From Thermodesulfobacteriota bacterium (GTDB lineage: Bacteria; Desulfobacterota; Desulfobacteria; Desulfobacterales; SURF-7): a DNA stretch of 64,000 nucleotides. The number at the start of each line of letters is the position of its first letter. The first letter of the stretch is position 1. The translations under genes and the position numbers were made by a program. The notes beneath the pieces are model-generated. The model searched no databases and had not been told where the DNA came from. It saw only the letters and a list, made by a program, of their open reading frames with translations. The DNA lies in the NCBI GenBank assembly GCA_049320885.1, contig JBMORA010000042.1, forward strand, positions 27,134 to 91,133, read 5' to 3'. Below, one piece after another: positions 15,832 through 48,691 of the stretch.

Positions 15832-16046
15832 CATCGTCGCCGCATAAACCCATCCAATCCGATAGCGATCAACGCATCGTCGCTGCCCGACTTTTCTGTA
15901 ACTTTACATCAGACGCCGGATATGATAGCGTAAAAATCGACGCTACCGGCTGTAGAATCCAACAGCACCAGACCGTTTCATTCCCGTGAAAAATCGACCC
16001 AATCGGTTTTATTGGCCGCATGATTCAAACACATGGCGGAGTCGAC

Positions 16047-17552
16047 ATGCAATTCGATTATCTCACCAGCAAATGCAACTGGTTCTGCCTGACAGCCCTC
16101 CTGCTCTGCCTGTCGCCGACCGCCGTTCCGCATGCCGGGGAAATGGGGGCGGCCTACTATGATTTCGGCGTCTTCGCTTTCGAGGAGAACGATTTTTCGG
16201 ATGCAGAGCGGAATTTTCAAAAAGCCCTGGCTGCCGATCCCCGGAATGTCAGCTACCGGTATTATCTGGGCAAAACCTATCTGAAAATGAAACGGTATGA
16301 AAAAGCCGAAGCCATACTGAATGAAGTCTTTCGGGAAAATGCTGACCTGAAAGGGCTGAAATACGATTTGGCCATGGCCAATTTTCATCTCGGCGATCTG
16401 GCCGAGGCCAGTTTTCTGCTTTCCATCGTCGTTGCGGAAAATCCCGCCGACGTTCTCGCGACGTATCATCTCGCCGTTTGTCAGTACAAACGGAAACGCT
16501 ATCGGGACGCCCTGGAATACTTCAACCGCGCGGCTGAAAAAAACCCCGGCATCGGACCGAACTGCTCCCTGTATGCCGGAATCTGTCATTACCGGCTGGG
16601 AGAACTGGAACAGGCTGTCCGGGAATTCGATGCCGCCGCGGTCCATGAAAAACCGGAAGAAATCCGGCAACAGGCGCGTCAATGGCGCAACGCCGTTCAG
16701 GCGGATATCAACGCCCAAAGGCCCTACCGGCTGTTCTGCAAGCTCGGGGGGCTGTATGACGATAATGTGTCGCTGCAACCCGTCGATGGGGATCTGGCTA
16801 CCAATGAAGAGGACTGGGGACTCATCGGTTTTCTGTCCGGCAGCTATCGTCTGCTGGGTGACAACCGCAACGGTCTTGGAATGGGATATCGGCATTATCA
16901 GATCGCCTACCGGGAATTGTCCGACTATAACCTCATTTCCTCGGCCCCGCATCTGTTCGCTTCCGTTTCCTGGGAACGCCTGGCTTTCATCCTTTCCTAT
17001 CAACCGACATTCTTCTGGGTGGGTTCGGACGAATACCTGCTCCGCCATCACGGCCGACAGGAAATCGCCTGGACAATGACGCCCCGTATCACCAGTCGTT
17101 TCGCCTTCAACTATTACGGAAACAATTACCTGATCAATTCCGGCAGAAGCGGGCGGACTCTGGGAGTGGAGGCCGAACTCCGCTATCGTTTCGGCAATGA
17201 CGCTCCGGCGGTTTTCGGCGGGTTTTCCTGCGAGGAAAATGACACCACCCATCCGGATTACGCCTACAAGCTGGGGGAAGCGCGGCTGGGCGCTTCCATG
17301 CCGATGCCCCTGGGCTTGCTGGTCACGGCAGGCGGACGATTTGCCCGTAAGCGATATGAGCATGTGGACTCGGTATATGGTGACAGAAGGGAGGACGACA
17401 AATACGCCATCGAACTGACGGTTGGACGGAATCTATACCGCGATTGGCTGGGAGCGGAGTGCTCCTATTACTTCACCCATAACGACTCCGACATCGAACC
17501 GTATGATTACCGGTCCAATGTAATCCATCTGACGGTTGTTGCGAATTTCTAG
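16047..17552 (+). CDS. TPR-repeat protein with a C-terminal outer-membrane beta-barrel (Slam/DUF560-like)
   Basis: Signal peptide, several TPR helix pairs, amphipathic strands starting at GGLYDDNV, terminal Phe; alternative start at 16020. Confidence 0.75.
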   Translation: MQFDYLTSKCNWFCLTALLLCLSPTAVPHAGEMGAAYYDFGVFAFEENDFSDAERNFQKALAADPRNVSYRYYLGKTYLKMKRYEKAEAILNEVFRENADLKGLKYDLAMANFHLGDLAEASFLLSIVVAENPADVLATYHLAVCQYKRKRYRDALEYFNRAAEKNPGIGPNCSLYAGICHYRLGELEQAVREFDAAAVHEKPEEIRQQARQWRNAVQADINAQRPYRLFCKLGGLYDDNVSLQPVDGDLATNEEDWGLIGFLSGSYRLLGDNRNGLGMGYRHYQIAYRELSDYNLISSAPHLFASVSWERLAFILSYQPTFFWVGSDEYLLRHHGRQEIAWTMTPRITSRFAFNYYGNNYLINSGRSGRTLGVEAELRYRFGNDAPAVFGGFSCEENDTTHPDYAYKLGEARLGASMPMPLGLLVTAGGRFARKRYEHVDSVYGDRREDDKYAIELTVGRNLYRDWLGAECSYYFTHNDSDIEPYDYRSNVIHLTVVANF

Positions 17553-17570
17553 ACAAGGCAGGGCCTCACC

Positions 17571-18623
17571 ATGCGCGTGGTAAAAATTTCAGCAGTCGTT
17601 GCCATCTGTGCAGTGCTTCTGACAGGACTGGATCGGGTCGCGGCTTCCGCTCCACCCCCGGATTTGCCGGTGGAAGATATTTTCGCTCCGGGATTCGGCG
17701 AACCTGTCGGAAACGTGCTCCTGGTGCAGGGGAAGGTCTATATCGTTCATGGGGGGATGAAGGCGGCCTATTCCATTTCAAAGCCGGTGCCGGTTTTCAA
17801 GGGCGATACCATCTATACGGACACTGGGGGGCGCATCCGCTTCCGCCTGAATGACGGCAGCATCATCGCCCTCTCCGCCGACACGGAATTGACCTTGACC
17901 AGAAGCATATACAACCCGGAACGGCGGGAACGCTCTTCCTTCCTGAAAATGATGGTTGGTCGGGCGAGATTTTACGTCATGAAACTGATGACCTATCGCG
18001 AGAACGCCTTCAAGGTGAAAACCAACACCTTTGTGGCCGGTGTGCGCGGGTCGGATTTCATCATCACCGCCACATCCGCTTCCGCCTCCGTCACGGCGCT
18101 GGAGGACACCACCCTTGAAATCGTCAGTCTGTCGGCCCCCGAAGCCGCCCCTGTGGTGTTGACCGATTTCCTCCGGACATCCGTTGACCTGGGAGCACTT
18201 CCCGGCCTCCCGGAAAAACTGGAAATAGAGGAAATCGAGGCTTTGAAGGAAGGGTTGTCACTGGATGGACATGTTTCCCGGGAGCCGGCCTCCGGAGTGA
18301 ATAAACCGGAAAAGGGCGTTTCCCCGTCCGGCGAACAAGCCGGCAACAAAACTGAAAAAACTGGAACCGCCGGCGGGGATGAAACCATTCCGGCGGCCCG
18401 GGAGGCCGCCGTAGTGATCCCGCCGGAAGACCTGCTCGTTCCCGAAGGTGTGCAGAACGGCCTGCCTCCGGAGGAACTTCCGGCTACCGAACCGGACAGA
18501 AGGGCTCTGACCGGCGACATGGATGAGGTCGAGGGTGAAATCAAGACGATCATGGCCGATAAGCGCGAGGACGATTCCGGCCGGCTTGCCGAACTCCCCC
18601 CCATGCCGGAGCCACCCCGGTGA
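17571..18623 (+). CDS. Exported FecR-domain protein with acidic/Pro-rich tail
   Basis: Signal peptide; GDTIYT...RFRLNDGSIIAL...FKVKTNTFVAGVRGSDF pattern. Confidence 0.85.
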   Translation: MRVVKISAVVAICAVLLTGLDRVAASAPPPDLPVEDIFAPGFGEPVGNVLLVQGKVYIVHGGMKAAYSISKPVPVFKGDTIYTDTGGRIRFRLNDGSIIALSADTELTLTRSIYNPERRERSSFLKMMVGRARFYVMKLMTYRENAFKVKTNTFVAGVRGSDFIITATSASASVTALEDTTLEIVSLSAPEAAPVVLTDFLRTSVDLGALPGLPEKLEIEEIEALKEGLSLDGHVSREPASGVNKPEKGVSPSGEQAGNKTEKTGTAGGDETIPAAREAAVVIPPEDLLVPEGVQNGLPPEELPATEPDRRALTGDMDEVEGEIKTIMADKREDDSGRLAELPPMPEPPR

Positions 18624-18676
18624 CAACCGGTGTAGAACAAAAGAGCAGGAAACCGACAAATCATCATGAGGACCCA

Positions 18677-21600
18677 ATGATCTCGATATCATTTCGTCAG
18701 ATAGGGGCCGTCATCATCCCGGCGATCTTCTGCCTGGCCGCGGTGACGGGGATCCCCGCGGCCCGGGCAGCCGATTATTATGTGAACATCACCAGCGGAA
18801 CAGATTCCTCCGGCGGCGGCTCCGCCGCCGCTCCCTGGAAAACCCTGCATTATGCCGTTCCCAGACTGACATCTTCGGACATCCTGCACGTGGCCTCCGG
18901 GTTCTACACCATCGCCAACGGCGAGACCGACGGGCCCATCGAAATCACCGCCGGCAATGTCACCATCCAGGCCGATGGCCCGGGAGTGGTGATCGAGGGC
19001 GACGGCGCCGCCTACTGGGTGGAAGGGTTGACTGTCAGCGGGGCCGCCAATGTCCGCATAACCGGATTGAATTTTCTGAATTTCGCCAATGCCGCCGCTT
19101 CTTTCCAGCACCTGACAGGGATGTGCATCCTATCCGACTGTACCTTGAAAGGCAATGCCACCGGCATCCAGGTGACCAATTCAAGTCCCGTCATCACCCG
19201 CAACCGACTTTTCGACAACGGCTACAGCATTTACATCATCGCGGATTCACCCACGGGACCGGCCTCACCCGAGATTTCGAACAACCTCATCGCTTCCCGG
19301 GCAGGCGGCATGCAGTACGGCATTAAAATCGAAGCGACCGTCACCGATGCCGTGGCCTCCCCCCTCATCTATCACAACACCATCGACGGCGCCTCCGCCG
19401 ACGGTATGTATATTTACAATGGGTTGGGAGCGACGGCGGAGGCGGTGACCCCCGACATCCGCTTCAACATCGTCACCAATTGTTCCCAATTCGGCATCAA
19501 CAACATTGAAGGGACCCCCTCCCAATTCGATTACAACGATGTCTGGAACAACAGCGGCGGCAATTACACGGGCATCACCGCCGGGACCAGCGATATCTCG
19601 GACAATCCTCTCTATCTGCCGCATGGCGACCAATACTACCTTCAATCCACCTCGCCCTGCATCAACAGGATCCCCATTGCCGGTCACCCGGTAAGCGCCG
19701 ATCTCCGCGGGAAAGCAAGGCCCCAGGGCTCCCTGATTGACCTGGGATGCTTCGAAATCGTCGAACCGTTCATTCTGCCGGGCGTCTATTATGTGGATGT
19801 CGTCAACGGCCGCAACGAACCGTCCGCAGGGACCGCACCCGGAACCGGCGCGTTCCGTAACCTGCATTTTGCCCTGGACCGCATCAATTACGGGGATCCG
19901 GGCGCTTTCACCCTGGAAGTGGCCCCCGGAATATACGGCATCGCCGGCGGGGAGGAAGACGCCGGTCTGGAGGTGATCACCGGCAGCCTGATCATCAAGG
20001 GGACGCCCTCCCTGGGAGCCGTGGTCGACGGCAGCGGCGCCCTTCAGTGGACAAGCGGTATGACGCTGAAGACTTCGGGCATCGGAATCTCCGGACTGCG
20101 GTTCCAACATTTCAGCAGGGCCGGAATAACGGTGGATAACTGCGGCCCCTCCATCCACCACAATGATTTCCTCAACAACCATACCGGCATCCTGGTGGAC
20201 AGTTATTCGGCCGAATCCGCCCCATCCGTCATCAACAACCTGCTCCGGGGAGATACCGCAAGCGGAATGAACAACGGCATTGTCCTGTATGCGGCCGGTT
20301 CGTCGGCATCGGCCGGCGGCTCCATCTATTTCAATACCATCAACGGCGGGGCCGGAAGCGGCATCTTCATCGGCAACAACGGCGGGAGCGCCGCCCCTGA
20401 AATTAAATACAATATAATCTCTAATTTCGGAAAATACGGGATTCAAAATACCAACGGCGGCCCGATCCTTTCTTATAACAATCTGTTCAACAACCTGGCT
20501 GCCGATTATCTGGATGTGCCCCCGGGAGAAATGGATATTTCTGCATCCCCGGCCTTCATAAGCGCAACCGACTTTCACCTGCAGGTCGGCTCGGCCTGCA
20601 TCGATCGCATACCGGCTGACAGCGTTTTCCCGTCGGATCTGCTCTCCGTCATCGGCTATGACCTGGACGGGAACCCCCGTCCGATGCCCTCTGGCGGCAG
20701 TTACGACCTGGGCGCCTATGAGCAGGCGGGTTCCGCCCTGACCATCGGTCTGGCCGTTTACCCCGAAGGCGCCGGTAGTGTCGTCGACAATCTGTCACAA
20801 ATCGACTGCCCCGGAGACTGCACCGGTTCCTACTCTTCATCGGACACCATCATCCTTCAGGCGACGGCCAATGCCGGCTTCCGTTTCGACCATTGGGAAA
20901 TCGGCGCCGAGTTCCATACCGAGAATCCGGTGTCCTTCACGCCCCATGCAAGTCAGACCGGCAAAGCGGTTTTCGCGGCCCTTACCAATCAGCCGCCGAT
21001 CGCACCCGCCGGAATCAGTCCCCGGGACGGCGCATCTTTTGACGGTGCAACGACACAGGTAGCTCTCCTTTCCAGTGTTTACGCCGATCCGGAAAACGAC
21101 GGCCACGCAAACACCCACTGGCTGGTACGCCGTCAGGACCGTGGTGTTTATTATTGCGACGATTACGATGTTTCCTTCACCCGGACAGCCTCCGCGGAGC
21201 CGGAGCTTACTTCCCACGAAGTCAGCGGGCTAGAGTCCGGCATGCAGTATGTCTGGAAGGTGGGGTATCAGGACACCGGCAGCGGACAGATCGCCTGGTC
21301 ACCGGAATATGTCTTCACCATCGGCGATCCGAGCGTGGACCGGGAAGTCAATTCCCCCGGGGGGGCCCTGCCGCAGGATTATCGGATGGTTTCCTTTCCG
21401 GTCTGGCCTTCTCATGCGGACTGTTCCACCGCTTTCCGCGACAGCTTCCCGGACGGGCTGTACGACCCCCGGACCATCCGCCTGGGGATCTACGATCCGC
21501 TTCAGAGTCGGTATCTGGAATGCCCCGACAACCTGGTGGTGACACCCGGAAAAGCCTACTGGCTCATATCCCGGGAAGGGCTGGACATGACCCTGCACGG

Positions 21601-22147
21601 CATCCCCGCGACCCTCACCCTTGACATGGAAATACCGCTCTCCTACGCCGAGGAGACCCGGGACGGCTGGAACATGGTGGCCTGTCCGAATTTCGCGGCC
21701 TACGAATGGTCCCGGTTGGAAATCCTGGAGTCCGACGGCGCCGGCGGTGTGTTGTATGGTCCCGCCGCCATCGAAACCCTTGGGAGCGACAATGCCTACA
21801 TCGATATCCGTTTATGGAGTTGGGAAAATGGGGCTTACGCCAGCACCACAACCCAGTTGCGTCCTCACCAAGGATATTGGGTCAAGGCCAGAAAAGCCAA
21901 CCTTTATCTGAAATTCCCCGCATCCGCCCGGTTGAGCCCCACGGACGTATCCGCAGCTTCCATGGCGCCGGTCGGCAATACAAACCAGCCCTCCCGAAAG
22001 GCTGTTCAGGAAAACAATGACAATGAGGAGGACGATGATGATGACTCGCCTCCGCCCCCCATGGAATCGGGTTTTTACTTCAAAAGCGACGGCCTGGCGG
22101 CCGCCGGCTCCTGTTTCATAGGCGCCTTGAACGGAAATCGCGACTGA
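18677..22147 (+). CDS. Large secreted/surface protein with two right-handed beta-helix modules and a C-terminal GSCFI tail
   Basis: GAGGA RBS before ATG 18677; signal peptide ending ARA; two YYV...G....PWKT/AFRN heads, Asn-ladder repeats, DLRGKARP...DLGCFE and DLDGNPRP...YDLGAYE caps; ends AAAGSCFIGALNGNRD. Confidence 0.85.
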   Translation: MISISFRQIGAVIIPAIFCLAAVTGIPAARAADYYVNITSGTDSSGGGSAAAPWKTLHYAVPRLTSSDILHVASGFYTIANGETDGPIEITAGNVTIQADGPGVVIEGDGAAYWVEGLTVSGAANVRITGLNFLNFANAAASFQHLTGMCILSDCTLKGNATGIQVTNSSPVITRNRLFDNGYSIYIIADSPTGPASPEISNNLIASRAGGMQYGIKIEATVTDAVASPLIYHNTIDGASADGMYIYNGLGATAEAVTPDIRFNIVTNCSQFGINNIEGTPSQFDYNDVWNNSGGNYTGITAGTSDISDNPLYLPHGDQYYLQSTSPCINRIPIAGHPVSADLRGKARPQGSLIDLGCFEIVEPFILPGVYYVDVVNGRNEPSAGTAPGTGAFRNLHFALDRINYGDPGAFTLEVAPGIYGIAGGEEDAGLEVITGSLIIKGTPSLGAVVDGSGALQWTSGMTLKTSGIGISGLRFQHFSRAGITVDNCGPSIHHNDFLNNHTGILVDSYSAESAPSVINNLLRGDTASGMNNGIVLYAAGSSASAGGSIYFNTINGGAGSGIFIGNNGGSAAPEIKYNIISNFGKYGIQNTNGGPILSYNNLFNNLAADYLDVPPGEMDISASPAFISATDFHLQVGSACIDRIPADSVFPSDLLSVIGYDLDGNPRPMPSGGSYDLGAYEQAGSALTIGLAVYPEGAGSVVDNLSQIDCPGDCTGSYSSSDTIILQATANAGFRFDHWEIGAEFHTENPVSFTPHASQTGKAVFAALTNQPPIAPAGISPRDGASFDGATTQVALLSSVYADPENDGHANTHWLVRRQDRGVYYCDDYDVSFTRTASAEPELTSHEVSGLESGMQYVWKVGYQDTGSGQIAWSPEYVFTIGDPSVDREVNSPGGALPQDYRMVSFPVWPSHADCSTAFRDSFPDGLYDPRTIRLGIYDPLQSRYLECPDNLVVTPGKAYWLISREGLDMTLHGIPATLTLDMEIPLSYAEETRDGWNMVACPNFAAYEWSRLEILESDGAGGVLYGPAAIETLGSDNAYIDIRLWSWENGAYASTTTQLRPHQGYWVKARKANLYLKFPASARLSPTDVSAASMAPVGNTNQPSRKAVQENNDNEEDDDDDSPPPPMESGFYFKSDGLAAAGSCFIGALNGNRD

Positions 22148-22655: not shown

Positions 22656-23150
22656 TCAGGTCACTGCCGTTCCGAACTCATATCGGCGTTTTTCGTAGGC
22701 CAGTATGATCCGGGTCTCGATATTCAGAACCCCGTCGATCCTGCTGATCCGGTTGAAAATCAGATCGTTCAGCTCATCCCGGGTTGTTACCACGAATTCG
22801 GCGTTGATACTGGTTTCGCCGGTGGTCAGCACAATATACCAGAGGGCCTGAATTTTTTTCAGTTCCTGGATCACGGTCTGGATTTTTCTCAGTTCAGCCC
22901 GGATATACAGATCCCCGGTGATTTCAAAGCCGAGTTTCAAGGGATTGCTTACCGCCACGATTTGAATGAACTCTTCTTCCATGAGCCGTTTCAGGCGGGA
23001 CCTGACGGTGGCCTCGGACAGGCCCAGCTGCTTGGCGATGTCGGTGTTGGACAGCCGGCCATCCTTCTGCAGGAGGGTAATGATCCGGGCATCGATCCGA
23101 TCTATGGCCCTGCGTTTCGGGTTTTTCACTGGATCATCAGCAGGCGGCAT
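22656..23150 (-). CDS. Lrp/AsnC-family transcriptional regulator
   Basis: IDARIITLLQKDGRLSNTDIAKQLGLSEATVRSRLKRL HTH plus RAM domain; AAGGAG RBS before ATG 23150. Confidence 0.92.
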   Translation of the reverse strand: MPPADDPVKNPKRRAIDRIDARIITLLQKDGRLSNTDIAKQLGLSEATVRSRLKRLMEEEFIQIVAVSNPLKLGFEITGDLYIRAELRKIQTVIQELKKIQALWYIVLTTGETSINAEFVVTTRDELNDLIFNRISRIDGVLNIETRIILAYEKRRYEFGTAVT

Positions 23151-23464
23151 CGGCGCTCCTTTCAAGCCGTGTATGCCACAAAGCACTCCGGAAGTCAAAA
23201 AATTTTCTGTCGCAAAATTGAATGTTATCGATATTTTTATAGATATATTTCACGATTTACGAAATTTTTACGATATTTTTTATCAAATATCGCACATTCC
23301 GTCTTGACTTTTTTGTTCATTCCCATTTATAGGATCATCAGCCAAACCCGAAAAACGGCACCCACGGCGGGCCTGGCGGATGCCGTCGACATCACCGCCG
23401 CCCCGTGGGCAACATCTTGATTTCGCGGCCTGCAACAAACAGTTTGGCCCGAAAGGAGGAGTAC

Positions 23465-24250
23465 ATGGGACAGATCACCGTAACCGACTTGCTGCGCATG
23501 AAACAGAAGGGAGAAAAAATCATTTCATTGACGGCCTATGACTACCCTTTTGCAAAGCTGCTGGATGAATCCGGTGTCCATGTCATGCTGGTGGGCGACT
23601 CCCTGGGCATGGTCGTCCAGGGGGAGACCAGCACCCTGCCGGTGACCATGGACGAAATGATTTATCACACCAAAATGGTGGCCAGGGCCGCCCGGAACGC
23701 CATGGTCATCGGCGACATGCCGTTTTTATCCTATCAATGCAGCATGGAGCAGGCAGTTCTGAACGCCGGCCGTTTCCTCAAGGAAGCCGGAGCGGCCGCG
23801 GTGAAACTAGAAGGCGGCGCCGCTGTCAGCCCCATCATCCGGGCCATTACCAGGGCGTCCATCCCGGTCCAGGCCCATATCGGCCTGACTCCCCAATCCA
23901 TCCACCAGATGGGCGGCTACAAAGTCCAGCGGGATGAGGAAAGACTGCTGGCCGACGCCAGGGAGGTGGAGTCCGCGGGCGCCTTTTCCGTGGTCCTGGA
24001 AGGCATCCCCGCCGACATCGCGGCCAACATCACCTCCGCCCTCTCCATCCCTACCATCGGCATCGGCGCCGGTCCCCGATGCGACGGCCAGATTCTGGTG
24101 CTGCACGATATGCTGGGTTTGAATGACCGGAAAATTCCAAAATTCGTCAAACGCTATGCCCAGCTGGGACAGGAGATTAAAAAAGCGGTTGCCGAATACG
24201 CCGGCGAGGTCCGCGGCCTGACATTTCCGGATCAGGAGCATTGCTATTGA
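23465..24250 (+). CDS. panB: 3-methyl-2-oxobutanoate hydroxymethyltransferase
   Basis: [33 protein letters not shown] and IGIGAG motifs; AAGGAGG RBS. Confidence 0.97.
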
Positions 24251-24278: not shown

Positions 24279-24307
24279 TTGACATGAATTCTCCATTCGC
24301 TTATGTA
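24279..24307 (+). promoter_or_regulatory. Putative sigma70 promoter for the riboswitch operon
   Basis: TTGACA (24279-24284), 17 nt, TATGTA, just upstream of the riboswitch. Confidence 0.5.
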
Positions 24308-24324
24308 AACGAAAAATTTGCTGT

Positions 24325-24497
24325 CGGCCTCAGGTGGCCCTGAAAACGGGCTGAAAAGGGAAACCGGTGAGAACCCGGTACGGTCCCGCCGCTGTGATCG
24401 GGGACGAAGATCGCGACATGCCACTGCTTCGCTTGAGCGGAACGGGAAGGCGCGATCCGCAGGATGATCCGAGAGTCAGAAGACCTGCCTGAAGCCG
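24325..24497 (+). promoter_or_regulatory. Cobalamin (B12) riboswitch
   Basis: Conserved blocks AGGTG...AAAAGGGAAACCGGTGAGAACCCGGTACGGTCCCGCCGCTGTGA...GCCACTG...GGGAAGG...GAGTCAGAAGACCTGCC (B12 box); flanks pair as P1. Confidence 0.95.
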
Positions 24498-24520
24498 GAA
24501 AAAAGACAAAGGGAAATGGT

Positions 24521-24557
24521 AAATCCCCAAGCGGTATTCGCTTGGGGATTTTTTTTT
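24521..24557 (+). terminator. Riboswitch expression-platform terminator
   Basis: AAATCCCCAAGCG-GTATT-CGCTTGGGGATTT stem with a long T run, directly before the RBS of the first gene. Confidence 0.9.
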
Positions 24558-24573
24558 GGGGGAGACGACCATT

Positions 24574-25614
24574 GTGAAAGCCGCGGTACTGATCAAGCCG
24601 GGAGAATTGACGGTTACGGACATGCCGGAACCGGATTGCCCCCGGGAAGGCGTGCTGGTTTGCGTGAAGGCCTGCGGAATCTGTTCCGCCGACGCCAGGA
24701 TGATCCGGAAGGGACACCGGGCCTTGACCTATCCCCGGATTCCGGGCCATGAAATCACCGGCACCGTCGCGGAATCCCGTCACCGTGATTTCATGGCCGG
24801 CGATGCGGTCCAGATCGCCCCCGGCCTCTCCTGCGGCGGCTGTCGTTCCTGCCGGGCAGGCGCCGATCATCGCTGTGACAACATTCAGATTCTCGGTTTC
24901 ACCCGCGACGGCGGTTTTGCCGAATATGTGGCCGTACCCCTGGCCGGCGCCCTTGCCGGAACAGTCACCCCCGTCCCCCGGGGACTGGGTACCGCCGTTG
25001 CCTGCCTTGCGGAACCCCTGGCCTGCTGCATCAACGCCCAGGATAAAATCCGGATCGGAGCCGGAGACACGGTCTGTATCCTCGGCGCCGGTCCCCTGGG
25101 GCTGATGCACGGCCTGCTGGCCCTCAGCCGGAGGGCGGAAACCGTCATACTCTGCGATCCCAGACCCGAACGGCTGCAACGAGCCCTTGCCGCCGGCATC
25201 CCGAACGTTCATGCCCCATCATCCACAGAAGACCTGCAGGAATTCCTTCCGGATACGAACCGGGGTCGCGGATTGGACGTCCTGATCGTGGCCGGCCCCG
25301 ACATTCCGCTGGAAGATCGTCTGCTGGAACTCATGGCCCCCGGCGGGCGGATCTCCGTTTTCAGCGGCTGCACTCCGCCGCTCGCCCTCCGCCCATGGGA
25401 TGCGAACCGCATTCATTATCGGGAACTCCTGATCTCCGGGGCCTATGGCTGCTCCGCGGAGCACAATCGCAAGGCCCTGAGATTCCTGGCGCACAGCCGC
25501 TTCGACTGGTCGACCCTGATCACCCATCGAAGCACCCTGACGAATATTCACGGCGCTCTCGATCATCTGATGATGGCGGACGCCTGCAAAGCCATTGTGG
25601 AGGTGAACCCATGA
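24574..25614 (+). CDS. Zn-dependent medium-chain dehydrogenase (iditol/threonine dehydrogenase-like)
   Basis: GTG start MKAAVL; CGICSAD, GHE, CGGCRSC...C structural Zn site, LAEPLAC, Rossmann GAGPLG. Confidence 0.9.
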   Translation: MKAAVLIKPGELTVTDMPEPDCPREGVLVCVKACGICSADARMIRKGHRALTYPRIPGHEITGTVAESRHRDFMAGDAVQIAPGLSCGGCRSCRAGADHRCDNIQILGFTRDGGFAEYVAVPLAGALAGTVTPVPRGLGTAVACLAEPLACCINAQDKIRIGAGDTVCILGAGPLGLMHGLLALSRRAETVILCDPRPERLQRALAAGIPNVHAPSSTEDLQEFLPDTNRGRGLDVLIVAGPDIPLEDRLLELMAPGGRISVFSGCTPPLALRPWDANRIHYRELLISGAYGCSAEHNRKALRFLAHSRFDWSTLITHRSTLTNIHGALDHLMMADACKAIVEVNP

Positions 25615-26732
25615 ATGACCGATTGAAACAGTTCGGTGATCTCATCAACCGCCTGATCGCCGGAAAATCCCTTTCCCGGGAGGAAGTCCGCCAGGCGGTT
25701 ATGCAAATCCTGAAGGACGCGACCACGGAAATCCACCAGGGCGCTTTTTTGGCCGCCGTCACGGCCAAGGGGCCGACGCCGGATGAAATCGCCGGTGCCT
25801 GGCAGGCCATCTACGAAGAGGATACCACCCGGGCCGATCCCCAAACCGAAACGCCCGTCCTGGACAACTGCGGCACGGGCATGGATGGGTTTAAGACCTT
25901 CAATATCAGCACCGCCGCGGCTGTCGTGGCCGCCGCCGGCGGGGTTCCCCTGGCCCGTCACGGCGCCAGGGCCATCACTTCCCGCTGCGGCACCGTCGAT
26001 CTGTGCGAGGCTGTGGGGGTGGACGTGGAATGTCCCGTTCCCGCCGTGACAGCCAGTATCGAAAGGGTGGGGATCGGCCTGTACAACGGCATGAGCCCCT
26101 TCGTCCACCCCCGGGCCTTGTTCCGCATTCTTTCCCGAATGTCCTTCGGCAGCATCCTGAACATCGCCGCCTCCTTGGCCAATCCCGCCCGGCCCCGTCT
26201 GGGCGTCAGGGGGGTTTATGCCGGCGACATGGCCATGCCGGTGGCCCAGGTCATGCGGGAAATCGGCTACCGAAAAGCCATCGTTCTGCACGGCTCGGCC
26301 GCCGAGGGTGTCGGCGGCATGGACGAACTGACGCCGGTGGGCGACAATCTGGCGGCCGAACTCATGCCCGACGGCCAAATCCGTTCCTATACCATCGCGC
26401 CCGCCGCCGTCGGCGTCCGGTTCAACGGTTCCATCCGGGATATCGCCGCCGGACCGGATCCGCAAACCGAAGCCCTACGATTGATCCGAGTGTTTGCCGG
26501 AAAGGATCACGGCGCACTCTTTGAAACCATCTGCTTGAATACGGCTCCGATTTTTTATCTGGCCGACAACACCGAAGACCTGAAATCCGGTTTTGAAAAG
26601 GCAAGGGAACTGATCCAGGGCGGCCAGGCCCTGAAACGCCTCCGGCAATGGGTCAAGGCCCAGAATACCGCTCCCGAAGCCGGTGCAAAGAGGTTCGACG
26701 ATCTGGCAAACCTGGTTGAAAATGAAACATGA
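25611..26732 (+). CDS. TrpD-like (anthranilate phosphoribosyltransferase fold) protein with divergent substrate motifs
   Basis: DNCGTGMDGFKTFNIST, RHGAR, CGTVD and GMDE; ATGA overlap with the upstream gene; not in a trp context. Confidence 0.85.
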   Translation: MNDRLKQFGDLINRLIAGKSLSREEVRQAVMQILKDATTEIHQGAFLAAVTAKGPTPDEIAGAWQAIYEEDTTRADPQTETPVLDNCGTGMDGFKTFNISTAAAVVAAAGGVPLARHGARAITSRCGTVDLCEAVGVDVECPVPAVTASIERVGIGLYNGMSPFVHPRALFRILSRMSFGSILNIAASLANPARPRLGVRGVYAGDMAMPVAQVMREIGYRKAIVLHGSAAEGVGGMDELTPVGDNLAAELMPDGQIRSYTIAPAAVGVRFNGSIRDIAAGPDPQTEALRLIRVFAGKDHGALFETICLNTAPIFYLADNTEDLKSGFEKARELIQGGQALKRLRQWVKAQNTAPEAGAKRFDDLANLVENET

Positions 26733-26786
26733 TTTAAGGGGGATTTACGGCTGCTGGAAACCGCCCGTTTCCCTGATGGAGGTTAA

Positions 26787-27872
26787 ATGGCAATGGAACA
26801 GATTACCCTGGACCGGATTATCTCCGGCATTCATCCCGTCGACAACGAATGGCTCCGGAAAGCCCGGCAGCGGACCGCCGAATTGCTCATGCCCCCCAGG
26901 GCGCTGGGCAGGCTTCACGACCTGTCCGAAAAACTCTGCGCCATTCAACGGACTCTCAAACCGTCCGTCGACCGGAAGGCCTTTTTGGTCATGGCCGGCG
27001 ATCATGGCGTGGCGGCTGAGGGTGTCAGCGCCTTTCCCCAGGAGGTGACCGGTGAAATGATCCGGTCCTTTCTACGGGGAGGAGCCGGCATCAATGTATT
27101 GGCCGCCCAGGTGAACGCCGATGTATTTGTGGTGGACATGGGCATTATCCCCCGGCTGATTCCCGCTGAAATAACGGGGGGGGACAGGCTGAGCGTCGTA
27201 AAAATCGCCCCGGGAACCCGCAATTTCACCCGGGGACCGGCCATGTCCCGGCCCGAAGCGGAAAAAGCGGTTCTGGCCGGCTTTCAACAGGCGGCCCGCC
27301 TTTTTGAAAGCGGTCTGGACATCATCGGCACCGGCGACATGGGCATCGCCAATACGACCCCCTCGGCGGCCATCGGCACGCTGCTCACGGGCACGGACCT
27401 CGATGACATGGTCGGTCGCGGCACCGGAGTGGATGACGCCGGACTGCAAAAGAAAAAGGACGCCATCCGCCGCGGCCTGGACATCAACCGGCCGGATCGG
27501 ACGGACGGCCTGGACGTGCTGGCGAAAATCGGTGGCTTTGAAATCGGCGGCATTGCCGGCGCCATTCTGGCCGCGGCGTATTGCAGGAAACCGGTGATGG
27601 TGGACGGGTTTATCTCCACCGCCGGCGCCTTGGTCGCCCAGGCCCTTTGTCCGCTAAGCGTTGAGTACATGTTTGCCGCCCATTGCTCCGAGGAGCGGGG
27701 GCATCGCGCCATGCTGCGCAGCCTGGGACTGACGCCGATTCTGGATCTCGGTCTGAGATTGGGCGAAGGAACCGGCGGCGCGCTCGCCATGGGCATCCTG
27801 GAGGGCGCCGTTCGGATTTTCCGGGATATGGCTACCTTTACGGAAGCGGGGGTATCCGGGACACCATCATGA
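26787..27872 (+). CDS. cobT: Nicotinate-nucleotide--dimethylbenzimidazole phosphoribosyltransferase
   Basis: ALGRL, MAGDHGV, GDMGIANTT, GRGTG, GGFEIGG, VDGFIS and LGLRLGEGTG; GGAGG RBS. Confidence 0.96.
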   Translation: MAMEQITLDRIISGIHPVDNEWLRKARQRTAELLMPPRALGRLHDLSEKLCAIQRTLKPSVDRKAFLVMAGDHGVAAEGVSAFPQEVTGEMIRSFLRGGAGINVLAAQVNADVFVVDMGIIPRLIPAEITGGDRLSVVKIAPGTRNFTRGPAMSRPEAEKAVLAGFQQAARLFESGLDIIGTGDMGIANTTPSAAIGTLLTGTDLDDMVGRGTGVDDAGLQKKKDAIRRGLDINRPDRTDGLDVLAKIGGFEIGGIAGAILAAAYCRKPVMVDGFISTAGALVAQALCPLSVEYMFAAHCSEERGHRAMLRSLGLTPILDLGLRLGEGTGGALAMGILEGAVRIFRDMATFTEAGVSGTPS

Positions 27873-43284: not shown

Positions 43285-46200
43285 ATGACCACCGCTCCCT
43301 ACAAGCCAAGGAATGCGATCCGCGTCGTCACGGCGACTTCCCTATTCGACGGTCATGACGCCGCCATCAACATCATGCGCAGAATTCTTCAGGATTCCGG
43401 GACGGAAGTGATCCATCTCGGGCACAACCGCTCGGCCAAAGAGATCGTTCGGGCGGCAGTAGACGAAGACGCCCACGGCATTGCTGTATCGAGCTACCAG
43501 GGCGGACACATGGAATTTTTCAAATACATGGTCGATCTGTTGAAAATGGAATCCGCTTCGCAGATTAAGATTTTCGGCGGCGGGGGCGGCGTCATTGTTC
43601 CGGACGAAATCCGGGAACTAGAAGAGTACGGAGTGATAAAAATTTATTCCCCGGAAGACGGCGCCAAGATGGGACTGCAGGGCATCATCAACCACATGCT
43701 GGAACGGTTGGATTTCGCCACCGTCGATGCGGATAAACTGGACATCCAGTCGCTTTCCGTTTCCAACCACGCAGCCATCGCCGGATATATTTCCGCTGCC
43801 ATGCTGCTGAAAACCGGACAGGATCCTCGATTGTCGTCCCTGCAGGCCCGGTTGCATCAAAAAATAGATGGCCGCAAGGTGCCGGTTATCGGCATAACCG
43901 GCACCGGCGGTGCCGGCAAGTCTTCCCTGACGGATGAGTTCATTCTCCGGCTGCTGATGGATCTGAAGGATATCCACATCGCCGTCATCTGTGGCGATCC
44001 GTCGCGCAGAAAGACCGGCGGCGCCCTTTTAGGGGATCGCATTCGCATGAACGCCATCGACAGTCCGCGTGTATACATGCGGAGTCTGGCCACTCGGAGC
44101 TCACAGACGGAAATACCTCCGGCCATGGCCGAGGCCATCGACGTAGCCAAGGCGGCGGGATTCGACCTGATTATTGCGGAAACCGCCGGAATCGGACAGG
44201 GGGATTCACGGATCTTCGATCTGACCGATGTCTCCGTCTACGTGATGACCAGTGAATTCGGGGCGGCCTCACAGTTGGAGAAGATCGATATGTTGGACTT
44301 CGCCGATCTGGTGGCGGTAAACAAATTCGACAAGCAGGGCAGTGAAGACGCGCTCCGCGATGTCCGCAAGCAAGTCCAGCGGAATCGGAAGGCCTGGGAC
44401 TCCGCCCCTGAAAAAATGCCGGTTTTCGGAACCATTGCGGCCAAATTCAATGACGAGGGCGTGACCGCTTTGTATCAGGCTTTGTTGAAAATCATTCATC
44501 AAAAAACCGGTGTTGAATTCCATTCCAAGCTGCCACCGAGCGAGCACAGCTATTCCACGATGAAAGCGATCATCATCCCGCCGGAACGGAATCGGTATCT
44601 ATCCGAAATCGCGGAAACCGTCCGCAAGTATCATCAGGAAACCCTAACAGAATCCGAAGCGCTTCGCAAAGTCTGGCATCTCCGGGAGGCGGCCGCGATG
44701 GTGGGAAGGGTTTCCGCAGCAGCGGACAAGAACCCGGTGCCAGTCTTGTTGAAACAGGAAGCCGACCGAGCGGAAACCTCGCTTTCACCCGAGACCAGCC
44801 GAGTCATGAGGGAATGGGAAGCTTTGCGGGAGGCCTATCGGCAGGACCAACTGGTCTTTGAAATCCGCGATCGCCAGATCAAGCTCCCGCTTTTCAGCGA
44901 ATCGTTATCGCATGTGCGAATACCGCGTGTCGCCATCCCCTCCTTCACCGATCCGGGTGAAATCTATCGTTTCATGAGGGAGGAAAATGTCCCGGGCAAC
45001 TTCCCGTACACCGCAGGGGTGTTTCCGCTGAAGCGGGCCGATGAAGACCCGACCCGTATGTTCGCGGGTGAAGGCGGCCCGGCGAGAACCAACAAACGTT
45101 TCAAACTCCTGTCGGCGGATTCCGCAGCCACCCGGCTTTCCACGGCCTTTGATTCCGTTACCCTCTATGGTTACGATCCGGATATCCGTCCGGATATTTA
45201 CGGCAAGATTGGGACCTCCGGAGTCAGCATCTGCACCCTGGACGACATGCGGGTATTGTATGACGGTTTTGACCTGTGCGCCCCGGACACTTCCGTTTCC
45301 ATGACCATCAACGGACCGGCGCCCATCATCCTGGCTATGTTCATGAATGCCGCCATTGATCAGCAGGCGGCCAAATGGCAGGCCGAAAAAGGCGCTCCGC
45401 CTTCTCCCGCTGAATACGACCGCATCCGTTCCATGGTGCTTTCCAATATCCGCGGAACGGTCCAGGCGGACATTCTCAAGGAGGACCAGGGTCAGAACAC
45501 CTGCATCTTTTCCATCGAATTCGCCCTGAAAATGATGGGCGACATTCAGGATTTTTTTATCAAAAACAATGTCCGCAATTTTTATTCGGTATCCATATCC
45601 GGATACCATATCGCCGAAGCAGGAGCCAATCCCATCACCCAGCTGGCCCTGACCCTGGCCAATGGATTCACTTATCTTGAATATTATCTTTCCCGCGGCA
45701 TGCCGGTCGACCAGTTCGCGCCGAATCTGTCCTTCTTCTTTTCCAACGGCATGGATCCGGAATATACGGTGATCGGCCGGGTGGCCCGGCGGATCTGGGC
45801 CGTAGCGCTGCGGGATAAATATAAGGCCGCCGCACGCTCCCAGATGCTCAAATATCATATCCAGACTTCCGGCCGATCCCTCCACAGCCAGGAAATCCAG
45901 TTCAATGACATCCGTACGACCTTGCAGGCCCTGTGCGCCATATACGACAACTGCAACAGCCTGCATACCAACGCCTACGATGAGGCCATTACGACACCGA
46001 GCGATGAATCGGTCAGGAGAGCGCTGGCCATCCAGCTGATCATCAACCGTGAATGGGGACTGGCCAAAAATGAAAACCCCAATCAGGGGAGTTATATCGT
46101 CACGGAATTGACCCGTCTGGTGGAAGAGGCGGTCCTTCTGGAATTTGATCGCATCACGGCGCGCGGCGGGGTCCTCGGTGCCATGGAAACCGGATATCAG

Positions 46201-46557
46201 CGCAGTAAAATCCAGGAAGAATCCATGTTTTACGAACAGAAAAAACACACCGGCGATCTCCCCATCATCGGCGTCAACACGTTCCTGAACCCGAAATCCT
46301 CCCTTGCCCAAGTGGCCTCCTGTCTGCAGCTGTCCAGGGCCACGGAGGAGGAGAAGCAGTCACAATTGAGCCGTTTGGCGGATTTCAAGCAACGCCACGA
46401 ACGGGAAGCACCGGCCGCTCTGGCCAGACTCCAGCAAATCGCCTTGTCGGGCGGCAATATCTTTGCGGAGTTGATGGATACGGTGCGGGTGTGCTCCCTG
46501 GGCCAGATCACCCAGGCCCTGTATGATGTCGGCGGGCGCTACCGCAGAAACATGTAA
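43285..46557 (+). CDS. icmF: Fused isobutyryl-CoA mutase/MeaB-like GTPase (AdoCbl-dependent)
   Basis: B12-binding FDGHD, GTPase [17 protein letters not shown], mutase [23 protein letters not shown] and SISGYH. Confidence 0.95.
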
Positions 46558-46630
46558 GGAGTTCGTCATGTGAACAGTAACATGATCTTTGACGGATAAT
46601 TCGTAATTCGTAATTATTATTGGGGTGCAT

Positions 46631-47806
46631 ATGAGACAAGCGGTCATCGTCAGTGCGGTAAGGACACCTCTGGGCGCATTCAATGGCTCGTTGAGCAGGA
46701 TTGACGCGACGCGGCTCGGCGCCGTCGTCATCGAAGCAGCCGTCCAGCGGGCAGGAATCGTAAAAAAATCGGTGAATGAAGTCATCATGGGTATGGTTCT
46801 CCCCTGCGGATATGGCCAGAATCCCGCCAAACAGGCGGCCGTAAAGGCCGGTTTACCCTGGGAGACTGAATGCATCACGGTGAACAAGGTCTGCGGATCA
46901 GCTCTCAAGGCCGTCATGTTGGCGGCCCAGGCTGTTCAGACCGGAGATGCCGATGTCGTTGTCGCCGGCGGCATGGAAAACATGAGCATGGCCCCCTATT
47001 ATCTTGAAAAAGCCCGCTTCGGTTACCGCATGGGTCCCGGGATGATTCAGGACCACATGGTGCATGACGGACTCTGGGACATCGTCAACGATTTCCACAT
47101 GGGCATATCCAACGAGCTCTGCTCCGAAAAATACAACATCAGCCGGGAAGACCAGGATCGCTATGCCGCCGAATCCTATCACCGCGCCATGCAGGCGATA
47201 TCCAGCGGACGCTTTGTGGATGAGATCGTCCCCGTGGAACTGCCGCCGCAGAAAGGCAGGTCAACCCTTTTCCTCCAGGACGAATGCCCCCAGGAAACCA
47301 CTTACGAAACCCTTGCCAAAATGAAAGGCGCCTTCCAGCAGGACGGCGTCGGCACCGCCGGCAACGCCTCCATCATCAGCGACGGAGCCGCCGCGGTGGT
47401 GGTAATGTCCCGGGAAAAAGCCGCCGAGCTGGGATGTACGATTCTGGCGGTCATTGGTGCCCAAGCCTCCTTCGGCATCGATATGAAATATGTGCTGGTG
47501 GCCCCCATCTGGGCGATCCCGAAATGCCTTCAAAAACAAGGCATCCGGAAAGACCAGGTGGATTTGTATGAAATCAATGAAGCCTTCAGCGGTTCCACCG
47601 TGGCGGTCCTGAGGGAACTCGAACTGGACCACGCACGGGTGAACGTGAACGGTGGCAGCGTCGCCCTGGGCCATCCCATCGGGGCCAGCGGATGCCGCGT
47701 ACTGGTCACCCTGTTGCATGAAATGATCAAACAGGATAAAAAGACGGGGCTGGCTTCCCTGTGCCTCGGCGGCGGCGAGGCCGTGGCCATGGTCGTTCAG
47801 CGATAA
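46631..47806 (+). CDS. Acetyl-CoA C-acetyltransferase (thiolase)
   Basis: NKVCGS, EINEAF, GHPIGASG and CLGGG. Confidence 0.95.
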   Translation: MRQAVIVSAVRTPLGAFNGSLSRIDATRLGAVVIEAAVQRAGIVKKSVNEVIMGMVLPCGYGQNPAKQAAVKAGLPWETECITVNKVCGSALKAVMLAAQAVQTGDADVVVAGGMENMSMAPYYLEKARFGYRMGPGMIQDHMVHDGLWDIVNDFHMGISNELCSEKYNISREDQDRYAAESYHRAMQAISSGRFVDEIVPVELPPQKGRSTLFLQDECPQETTYETLAKMKGAFQQDGVGTAGNASIISDGAAAVVVMSREKAAELGCTILAVIGAQASFGIDMKYVLVAPIWAIPKCLQKQGIRKDQVDLYEINEAFSGSTVAVLRELELDHARVNVNGGSVALGHPIGASGCRVLVTLLHEMIKQDKKTGLASLCLGGGEAVAMVVQR

Positions 47807-47842
47807 CCCGTTTGAATCATCCCAACGGAAAGGAAAACCGTA

Positions 47843-48691
47843 ATGGATATTAAAACAGTAGGCGTTATCGGCAGCGGCCAGATGGGCGGTGGAATCTCCC
47901 AGGTCGCGGCGGCCAAGGGTCTTTCGGTCATCATGAACGATATCCGGTCGGAATTTGTCGCGCGGGGCATGGAGGTCATCACCGCCAATCTTCGGCGCGA
48001 GGTTGACAAAGGAAGACTGTCGAAGGAGGAACAGCAGGCCGTAATCGACCGCATCCGGCCCAGTATCCAGCTTGCAGACATGGCCACAGCCGATTTTGTC
48101 GTGGAAGCCGCAACGGAAAATGAACCGGTTAAACTCCAGATTTTCAGGGATCTGGACGCCATTTGCCGCCCGGAAGTCATTCTGGCGACCAACACCTCGT
48201 CCATTCCCATCGGCCGGATCGCCGCCGCAACGAAGCGGCCGGATAAAATCATCGGCATGCACTTCATGAATCCCGTGCCGGTGATGAAATTGGTGGAAGT
48301 CATCCGGGGGCTGGCCACCTCGGAAGACACCTTCCGGGTCACCTGGAAGCTGAGCGGACATCTCGGCAAAACACCCGCCGAAGCCGGAGATTATCCGGGG
48401 TTCATCGCCAATCGCATCCTCATGCCCATGATCAACGAAGCGATTTACTGTCTGTATCACGGGGTGGGGAAGCGGGAAGACATCGATACGGTCATGAAAC
48501 TCGGCATGAACCATCCCATGGGCCCCCTGGCACTTGCCGACCTGATCGGACTCGATACCTGTCTGGCCATCATGGAAACCCTTTTTGACGGATTCAAGGA
48601 TTCCAAATACCGTCCCTGCCCGCTCCTCCGGAAATACGTGGAAGCCGGCTGGCTGGGAAAGAAGACCCGAAAAGGGTTTTACGACTATTGA
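47843..48691 (+). CDS. hbd: 3-hydroxybutyryl-CoA dehydrogenase
   Basis: GSGQMGGG, TNTSS, GMHFMNP, GFIANR and HPMGPL. Confidence 0.93.
   Translation: MDIKTVGVIGSGQMGGGISQVAAAKGLSVIMNDIRSEFVARGMEVITANLRREVDKGRLSKEEQQAVIDRIRPSIQLADMATADFVVEAATENEPVKLQIFRDLDAICRPEVILATNTSSIPIGRIAAATKRPDKIIGMHFMNPVPVMKLVEVIRGLATSEDTFRVTWKLSGHLGKTPAEAGDYPGFIANRILMPMINEAIYCLYHGVGKREDIDTVMKLGMNHPMGPLALADLIGLDTCLAIMETLFDGFKDSKYRPCPLLRKYVEAGWLGKKTRKGFYDY

Follow-up and report, generated by a model that had tools for sequence, protein, structure and literature searches.

In the window, by which we mean the whole 64,000-nt stretch analysed here (assembly GCA_049320885.1, contig JBMORA010000042.1, positions 27,134-91,133 of the forward strand; Thermodesulfobacteriota, lineage SURF-7), an operon was found in which a Zn-dependent medium-chain dehydrogenase/reductase (MDR), a TrpD-like phosphoribosyltransferase (PRTase) and the cobamide enzyme CobT are encoded behind a cobalamin riboswitch. 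Judged from linkage, folds and residues, the first two enzymes appear to represent new families at a known step and to form a widespread B12-linked module, which very probably serves the CobT step in a lower-ligand role. How it does so is more tentative: possibly, this B12-repressed module converts a scavenged precursor into a benzimidazole-type base for CobT, via ribosylation of an aromatic (di)amine with phosphoribosyl pyrophosphate (PRPP) and NAD-linked oxidation. The operon has the following features:

24279..24284, + strand: putative sigma-70 -35 hexamer TTGACA, read from the sequence (perfect match; -10 weak)
24315..24506, + strand: cobalamin riboswitch aptamer RF00174 (Rfam, 120.9 bits, E 8.6e-30)
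24521..24557, + strand: intrinsic-terminator-like hairpin with U tract, the predicted expression platform (14-pair stem, T run)
24574..25614, + strand: Zn-dependent MDR dehydrogenase, 346 aa (PF08240 and PF00107)
25611..26732, + strand: TrpD-fold PRTase of the B12-linked clade, 373 aa (PF00591 and PF02885, TIGR01245)
26787..27872, + strand: CobT, nicotinate mononucleotide (NaMN):base phosphoribosyltransferase, 361 aa (TIGR03160)

The riboswitch match covers the full RF00174 model (1-189 of 189) against a gathering score of 31.5 bits and is the sole Rfam match within the window. The hairpin proper (24521-24551) is present in both the minimum free energy and centroid folds, and with its U tract it is predicted to act as an OFF switch. 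The MDR and TrpD-like open reading frames (ORFs) overlap by exactly ATGA, and cobT starts after a gap of exactly 54 nt. A full riboswitch, a terminator and three co-oriented genes with this overlap and spacing had been described in a sequence-only reading of this DNA, and all of them are borne out. The promoter it also named is less clear: the TTGACA hexamer is perfect and lies ahead of the riboswitch in 12 of the 13 relatives displayed, whereas the -10 element is weak and a consensus promoter scan called no promoter there.

The arrangement is conserved well beyond the host. Relatives came from an alignment-based scan of GTDB, in which the best 80 of at least 572 were examined, a set leaning to close relatives; a GTDB scan with the TrpD-like protein as lone query gave no match. 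These best 80 belong to Desulfobacterales and related groups, Dehalococcoidia, Peptococcaceae/Desulfosporosinus, Methanotrichaceae, Methanomassiliicoccales and Syntrophoarchaeum. The dehydrogenase adjoins the TrpD-like gene in 74/80 loci, and cobT is adjacent in 31, being bacterial in 21 (within 1.5 kb) and of the archaeal type TIGR00303 in 10 (one representative scanned). A riboswitch was detected in 38 of 47 bacterial loci by a profile made from Rfam matches and searched up to 450 nt upstream (five loci were too short and four were without), and Rfam itself matched a cobalamin riboswitch in 10/10 chosen loci. Among 111 genomes drawn evenly from the host's order, 20 carry the TrpD-like clade; all 20 carriers have the dehydrogenase, and 18 have cobT versus 28 of 40 non-carriers tested.

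Gene fusions tie the three enzymes together further. Eight of the 20 order carriers encode MDR::CobT fusions of 703-781 aa (three Pfam-scanned), seven lying directly behind the TrpD-like gene and six having a riboswitch match. One MDR::TrpD-like fusion (P0123, a single contig) was also found, and no direct TrpD-like::CobT fusion was seen among longer proteins, which is a weak negative. Identity matrices of the MDR and TrpD-like proteins correlate (rho 0.60, 67 loci), to an extent that kinship alone could produce. Linkage of homologues to cobT and B12 riboswitches, which the sequence-only reading had set as a test, is thus kept across phyla and domains, and the best indication that the pair acts at the CobT step is its association with CobT of the bacterial, fused and archaeal types alike. 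In several loci a small conserved ORF of 70-95 aa with a DKASVFP motif separates the TrpD-like gene from the dehydrogenase::CobT fusion (L095:5128-5400, L097:4124-4339, L098:3431-3658, L100:5253-5534 and L103:5592-5885); the two scanned had no Pfam match, and the window operon is without such a gene. In Methanomassiliicoccales (L040, L058, L059, L072, L074, L079-L082, L087), cobT is missing next to the pair, and the opposite strand bears a DHPS-like / Fe-S oxidoreductase / LarA-family cluster facing it, a TIGR00303 cobT being located elsewhere in 4/4 tested.

The TrpD-like protein is annotated as TrpD in databases and passes TIGR01245 (247.7 bits; cut-off 199.05). Its predicted structure (pLDDT 92.1) resembles 1ZYK with a TM score of 0.86 and Foldseek E-values of 1e-25 to 1e-22, and the ESM Atlas added no functional name. 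According to the accessible part of PMC9835598, G107/G110, S119, D251 and E252 of TrpD serve in PRPP and Mg binding, and the carboxylate of anthranilate is held by N138 and R193. When the Mycobacterium tuberculosis residues were mapped by sequence alignment, the PRPP/Mg residues (G88, S100, D238, E239) proved invariant in 79/79 locus proteins. The GTGGD loop reads GTGMD in 118 of 119 homologues and in 79/79 locus proteins, the G110 equivalent always being Met. Across the 79 clade members, the N138 equivalent (position 119) is Ala or Ser and the R193 equivalent (position 174) is Leu, versus Arg in 77/77 canonical proteins, a set chosen by GTGG/KHG[NS] motifs for which the R193 column is the only independent contrast. 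A further clade motif, [RK]HG[AS]R, and new invariants (W64, D71, N159, R172, R200) were also observed, and together the substitutions suggest that the acceptor site has been remodelled with loss of both anthranilate-carboxylate ligands. In a quick IQ-TREE phylogeny, the B12-linked sequences group together as a single clade (SH-aLRT 99), distinct from canonical TrpD (100) and a sister clade (100).

We therefore weighed whether the gene could be a second ordinary anthranilate phosphoribosyltransferase, here by chance. The family cut-off it passes and its database name would fit, but the host encodes a canonical trpD (34% identity to the TrpD-like protein) in a trpE-G-D-C-F operon on a different contig, a separate copy for which the earlier reading had advised a search; with the anthranilate ligands lost and the B12 context conserved, this explanation is hardly credible. 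The TrpD-like PRTase fails three defining TrpD features, namely the GTGGD loop, the anthranilate ligands and the trp-operon/sole-copy context. A plasmid scan yielded canonical trpD only, one case.

The sister clade offers a hint of the chemistry. Its cassette encodes a small Lrp/AsnC-type protein, trpC, trpF, a RibD-C reductase, the trpD-like gene and a molybdopterin oxidoreductase (L104:1487-7099, L112 in genome G064, and the 58 metagenome loci L143-L200). In the 58 loci, many of them short, trpF accompanies the trpD-like gene in 39 and the RibD-C reductase does so in 42; no riboswitch and no cobT were found there, and one dehydrogenase match was. Since the partners act on N-phosphoribosyl-arylamines, this non-canonical TrpD branch would still ribosylate an amine, which suggests that amine ribosylation has been retained and favours the forward reaction.

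The MDR protein falls below all 21 NCBIfam cut-offs, including two for threonine dehydrogenase (TDH; 139.5 vs 458.35 and 147 vs 380). Its catalytic (C37, H59, E60, E147) and structural (C87/90/93/101) Zn ligands are conserved, as are the EP motif and an NAD-type Rossmann motif (GxGxxG plus an acidic residue), and the family is marked by K42 (Arg in the window copy), R55, H281-Y282-x-E284 (HYxE) and Y291 (GxYG). The model (pLDDT 92.3) superposes on TDH/SDH-like folds with TM scores of 0.85-0.91, the nearest solved structures, none more than about 30% identical, being of the TDH or polyol-dehydrogenase kind. The protein appears to constitute its own orthologous family of the polyol/threonine-dehydrogenase type and, since neither the free nor the fused form has lost the Zn ligands or the Rossmann motif, it is probably active in both. 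A predicted complex of the TrpD-like protein with the dehydrogenase (score 0.00, mark 0.32) weighs neither way.

One option in the sequence-only reading was that the dehydrogenase supplies the aminopropanol linker, as a threonine/aminoacetone oxidoreductase making (R)-aminopropanol. TDHs are indeed among the nearest solved structures, the host has cobD/cbiB-like genes and no PduX match, and cobD or cbiB lies near some loci. Nevertheless, we regard this option as very unlikely: both TDH cut-offs are missed by far, the dehydrogenase is fused solely to CobT or the TrpD-like enzyme and not to CobD or CbiB, and the PRTase is left unexplained. Moreover, in two Desulfosporosinus carriers (G135, G136), the gene immediately ahead of cobD encodes a PduX-like kinase, an assignment based on motif and position with no family model match. 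The wider claim that both enzymes act with CobT in cobamide completion gains from the conserved linkage, riboswitches and fusions; of its variants, building or modifying a base and releasing a base or salvaging an aromatic amine are retained, and linker supply is disfavoured.

The window CobT scores 429 bits against TIGR03160 (cut-off 319.3), and its E327 aligns to the catalytic E317 of the Salmonella (S. enterica) enzyme. Its pocket contains F83 and M91, and F/Y/W plus M occupy the S80/Q88 positions in 24/24 cassette CobTs aligned. Such an aromatic/Met pattern disfavours adenine according to the accessible part of PMC4657239. The cassette pocket is thus predicted to be 'benzimidazole-type', and no more specific.

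The host genome (5.6 Mb, 98.2% complete) was inventoried for corrinoid genes; as genome-wide ORF calling overlooked the MDR gene, gene absences were taken from six-frame searches. The earlier statement that no BluB or Bza genes lie here holds for the window and also genome-wide: BluB was not found (best 48 bits; cut-off 150), nor were the ThiC paralogues bzaAB/bzaF, Bza-like queries matching only the single ThiC-family gene, which lies within a thi operon. CbiD was likewise not found in the genome. A search for cobD and pduX, which the same reading had advised, returned a cobD-like gene and no PduX match. CbiZ and homologues of cbiP, cbiB, cobD, cobU, cobS, cbiR and btuB are present, together with four cobalamin riboswitches and one cobT. 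By gene content, the host looks like a corrinoid salvager and remodeller without a known means of making a benzimidazole. Two remodelling enzymes, CbiR and CbiZ, occur in this one genome, with no PduX and no close CobC; a cobU-cobS-cobD-like-cbiR cluster is located at G000:C14:74279-77525, and CbiZ at G000:C64:63588-64169, inside a 745-aa open frame of a btuB riboswitch operon. The IcmF noted earlier in the window is an IcmF-type mutase (43285-46557; B12-binding, MeaB and mutase domains), followed by a thiolase and a 3-hydroxyacyl-CoA dehydrogenase (43285-48691, +).

We infer that CobT receives from the module a compound not provided by NadC, PduX or Bza, most likely a base from a scavenged precursor. 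This proposal starts from a PRPP/Mg site that is kept in a clade sitting with CobT, and from a host lacking bzaF-like genes and BluB yet encoding CbiZ and CbiR. In the first step, the TrpD-like enzyme would N-phosphoribosylate an aromatic amine other than anthranilate with PRPP, most simply an ortho-diamine. The Zn/NAD dehydrogenase, which the MDR::CobT and MDR::TrpD-like fusions place between the other two enzymes, would then oxidise the ribose-derived part of the labile adduct, so that C1' becomes the imidazole C2 and the remainder departs as a C4 sugar phosphate, in an oxygen-free counterpart of BluB's last steps. Finally, whether ahead of the cleavage or following it, CobT would use NaMN to form the alpha-ribotide needed by CobS. 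In BluB chemistry, the ribityl C1' is the source of C2, and aromatic amines are substrates of Salmonella CobT. Moreover, 5,6-dimethylbenzimidazole reportedly forms non-enzymatically under air from dimethylphenylenediamine and ribose 5-phosphate (Maggio-Hall 2003). In about eight loci (L021, L022, L023, L025, L033, L015, L100), twice between the TrpD-like gene and cobT, the cassette is followed by a PF13557 outer-membrane 'MetA-pathway of phenol degradation' protein, which could import an aromatic precursor.

Several observations weigh against base supply. Six of the 80 loci lack an adjacent dehydrogenase, at least three of them with enough flank, 49/80 lack an adjacent cobT, and a riboswitch was found in 0/33 archaeal loci. 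The F/M pocket also occurs in bzaF-linked CobT and so does not single out the cassette. We know of no natural o-diamine supply in anaerobes. Two new invariant arginines of the clade, R172 and R200, could accommodate an anion such as nicotinate as acceptor, so that losing N138 and R193 is not proof of an amine acceptor free of carboxylate. The clade is also present in D. mccartyi, which nevertheless needs added benzimidazoles, so the module cannot serve de novo synthesis from core metabolites there. In the order sample, the cassette occurs independently of bzaF (Fisher p=1, kin not being independent), 28 of 58 CbiD-positive genomes have neither a bzaF-like gene nor the cassette, and in G136 the cassette coexists with a riboswitch and two tandem ThiC-like (bzaAB-like) genes. 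The cassette is therefore not a general stand-in for Bza.

The label 'bzaF-like' was assigned from riboswitch-cobT context and identity, as NCBIfam has no BzaF model and the protein falls below the BzaB cut-off. Such genes occur in 25/111 order genomes and in 4/20 carriers, 16/20 carriers, the host included, being without one. Complementarity of bzaF and cassette was considered and rejected on these counts, with the same outcome at 6/26 when six genomes with a divergent pair (see below) are added. In three of the four double carriers, bzaF has a cobT next to it and a second cobT is fused to the dehydrogenase gene, suggesting that the module keeps its own CobT. Methanothrix-type ThiC paralogues gave 2-3 matches, some partial, in 9 of 13 genomes.

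The main alternative is that the pair acts on a riboside or ribotide to set a benzimidazole free, either by pyrophosphorolysis or by oxidising a ribose hydroxyl and so labilising the N-glycosidic bond, or by both, and that CobT re-activates the base; the sources would be alpha-ribosides left by CbiR/CbiZ or wrong-anomer beta-ribotides. The cobT linkage and fusions fit equally, cbiR, cbiB, cobD and btu genes are repeatedly found close to the cassette, and salvagers are found among the carriers (17/57 without a CbiD match). A releasing role would also suit the patchy spread, the coexistence with bza genes, and a polyol-type dehydrogenase with invariant basic residues (K/R42, R55). CbiD is, however, present in 40/57 carriers, pointing to use of the module by producers and salvagers alike; a kinase (CblS) would be a simpler means of alpha-ribazole salvage; the sister clade indicates the forward reaction; and both enzymes would have to share one substrate in no obvious order. 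On balance, we consider base release unlikely, though it deserves to be kept in mind.

A role in donor supply is more doubtful. Here, the TrpD-like enzyme, with the dehydrogenase, would combine PRPP with the nicotinate released by CobT to remake NaMN or a different beta-ribotide donor. Two inversions (alpha-PRPP to beta-donor to alpha-ribotide) suit the stereochemistry, R172/R200 could bind a relocated carboxylate, and a base-independent function fits coexistence with bza genes. However, NadC occurs in 39/43 carriers vs 17/18 non-carriers, so that a donor-making enzyme is not needed, and the host itself has NadC as well as a nicotinate PRTase above cut-off. Furthermore, 28/40 non-carriers have CobT without the cassette, and the dehydrogenase would be left without a clear role.

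Similarly improbable is a quality-control or bypass function, in which the pair would keep unwanted bases away from CobT or, under B12 shortage, stand in for a B12-dependent reaction. B12 riboswitches also control B12-independent isoenzymes, and six more order genomes (L228, L230, L232, L234, L235, L236), which fell below the carrier cut-off and are not among the 20, have a divergent MDR + TrpD-like pair with no riboswitch or cobT within ~4 kb. In these pairs the motif reads GTGSD in the four copies where it was read, and that of L228 adjoins a corrinoid adenosyltransferase gene. On the other hand, shared intermediates are favoured by the CobT fusions and by the occurrence of the pair next to two very dissimilar kinds of CobT, and archaeal carriers keep the cobT linkage without a riboswitch.

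Taken one step further, base supply would amount to a third benzimidazole route besides BluB and Bza, in which TrpD-derived ribosylation of a diamine is followed by ring closure with an NAD-linked Zn dehydrogenase in place of oxygen, and by CobT. We put this forward as a speculation that may well be wrong. If true, sulfate reducers, Dehalococcoidia, Peptococcaceae and methanogens would use the route, which could explain the 5-methylbenzimidazolyl cobamides reportedly found in sulfate reducers and Methanothrix (Krautler 1988), a base to which we know of no bza-gene route. As far as we know, BluB and Bza are the only characterised base-making routes, and about half of the CbiD-positive genomes in the order sample are without bzaF, so the list of routes is incomplete. 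Which cobamide an anaerobe can make depends on lower-ligand supply, which also limits organohalide respirers such as Dehalococcoides. The module offers two soluble, well-folded candidate enzymes, one of them a TrpD apparently repurposed for a new acceptor. Transcriptomes of D. mccartyi 195 reportedly list a B12-repressed dehydrogenase/anthranilate-PRTase pair (Johnson 2009), so regulation of the pair may already be in print without a function. No description of the MDR/TrpD-like pair was found in the open-access literature, subscription papers and supplements lying outside its scope; the accessible parts of PMC4230183, PMC6461909, PMC4285132, PMC5102406, PMC12452182, PMC8123684, PMC3781023 and PMC7617358 do not mention it. 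A figure legend in PMC8620254 lists variable Chlorobium genes, cobalamin genes among them, and includes a trpD and a dehydrogenase that may or may not belong to this module.

Upstream of the operon, panB (23405-24250, +) lies directly 5' of the promoter region and is preceded by a divergent Lrp/AsnC regulator (22656-23198, -); neither was seen as a repeated neighbour at related loci. A TPR/Slam-like protein, a FecR-domain protein and a 1175-aa beta-helix surface protein are encoded in series at 16020-22147 (+).

Compared with TrpD (EC 2.4.2.18; TIGR01245; PDB 1ZYK, 1ZVW, 9UCW), the TrpD-like enzyme has the same fold (TM 0.79-0.86 by query), two-domain layout and PRPP/Mg residues (equivalents of G107, S119, D251 and E252), but differs by GTGMD for GTGGD, Ala/Ser for N138, Leu for R193 and the new W64, N159, R172 and R200; it forms a separate clade with no trp genes near, and has a B12 riboswitch, the dehydrogenase and cobT instead. 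The sister cassette, its nearest TrpD-like clade, has in common the change of N138 to Ala, the loss of R193, N159 and R172, and differs by GTG(A/G)D, the absence of R200 and a Mo/W enzyme partner. The dehydrogenase shares Zn ligands, EP and GxGxxG motifs and fold with MDR polyol/threonine dehydrogenases (TDH, sorbitol dehydrogenase, IolM, galactitol-1-P dehydrogenase), from which it is set apart by its low identity (about 30% at most), its own invariants (K42, R55, HYxE, GxYG) and its fusion to CobT or the TrpD-like enzyme. Like bza operons (riboswitch - bzaAB/bzaF - cobT - bzaCDE) and BluB or its BluB-CobT2 fusion, the module is predicted to be B12-regulated and lies beside, or is fused to, cobT. 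In the best reading it would work like a bza or bluB-cobT unit while belonging to neither: in place of a ThiC-like radical SAM enzyme, a methyltransferase or a nitroreductase fold, it has PRPP- and NAD-dependent enzymes.

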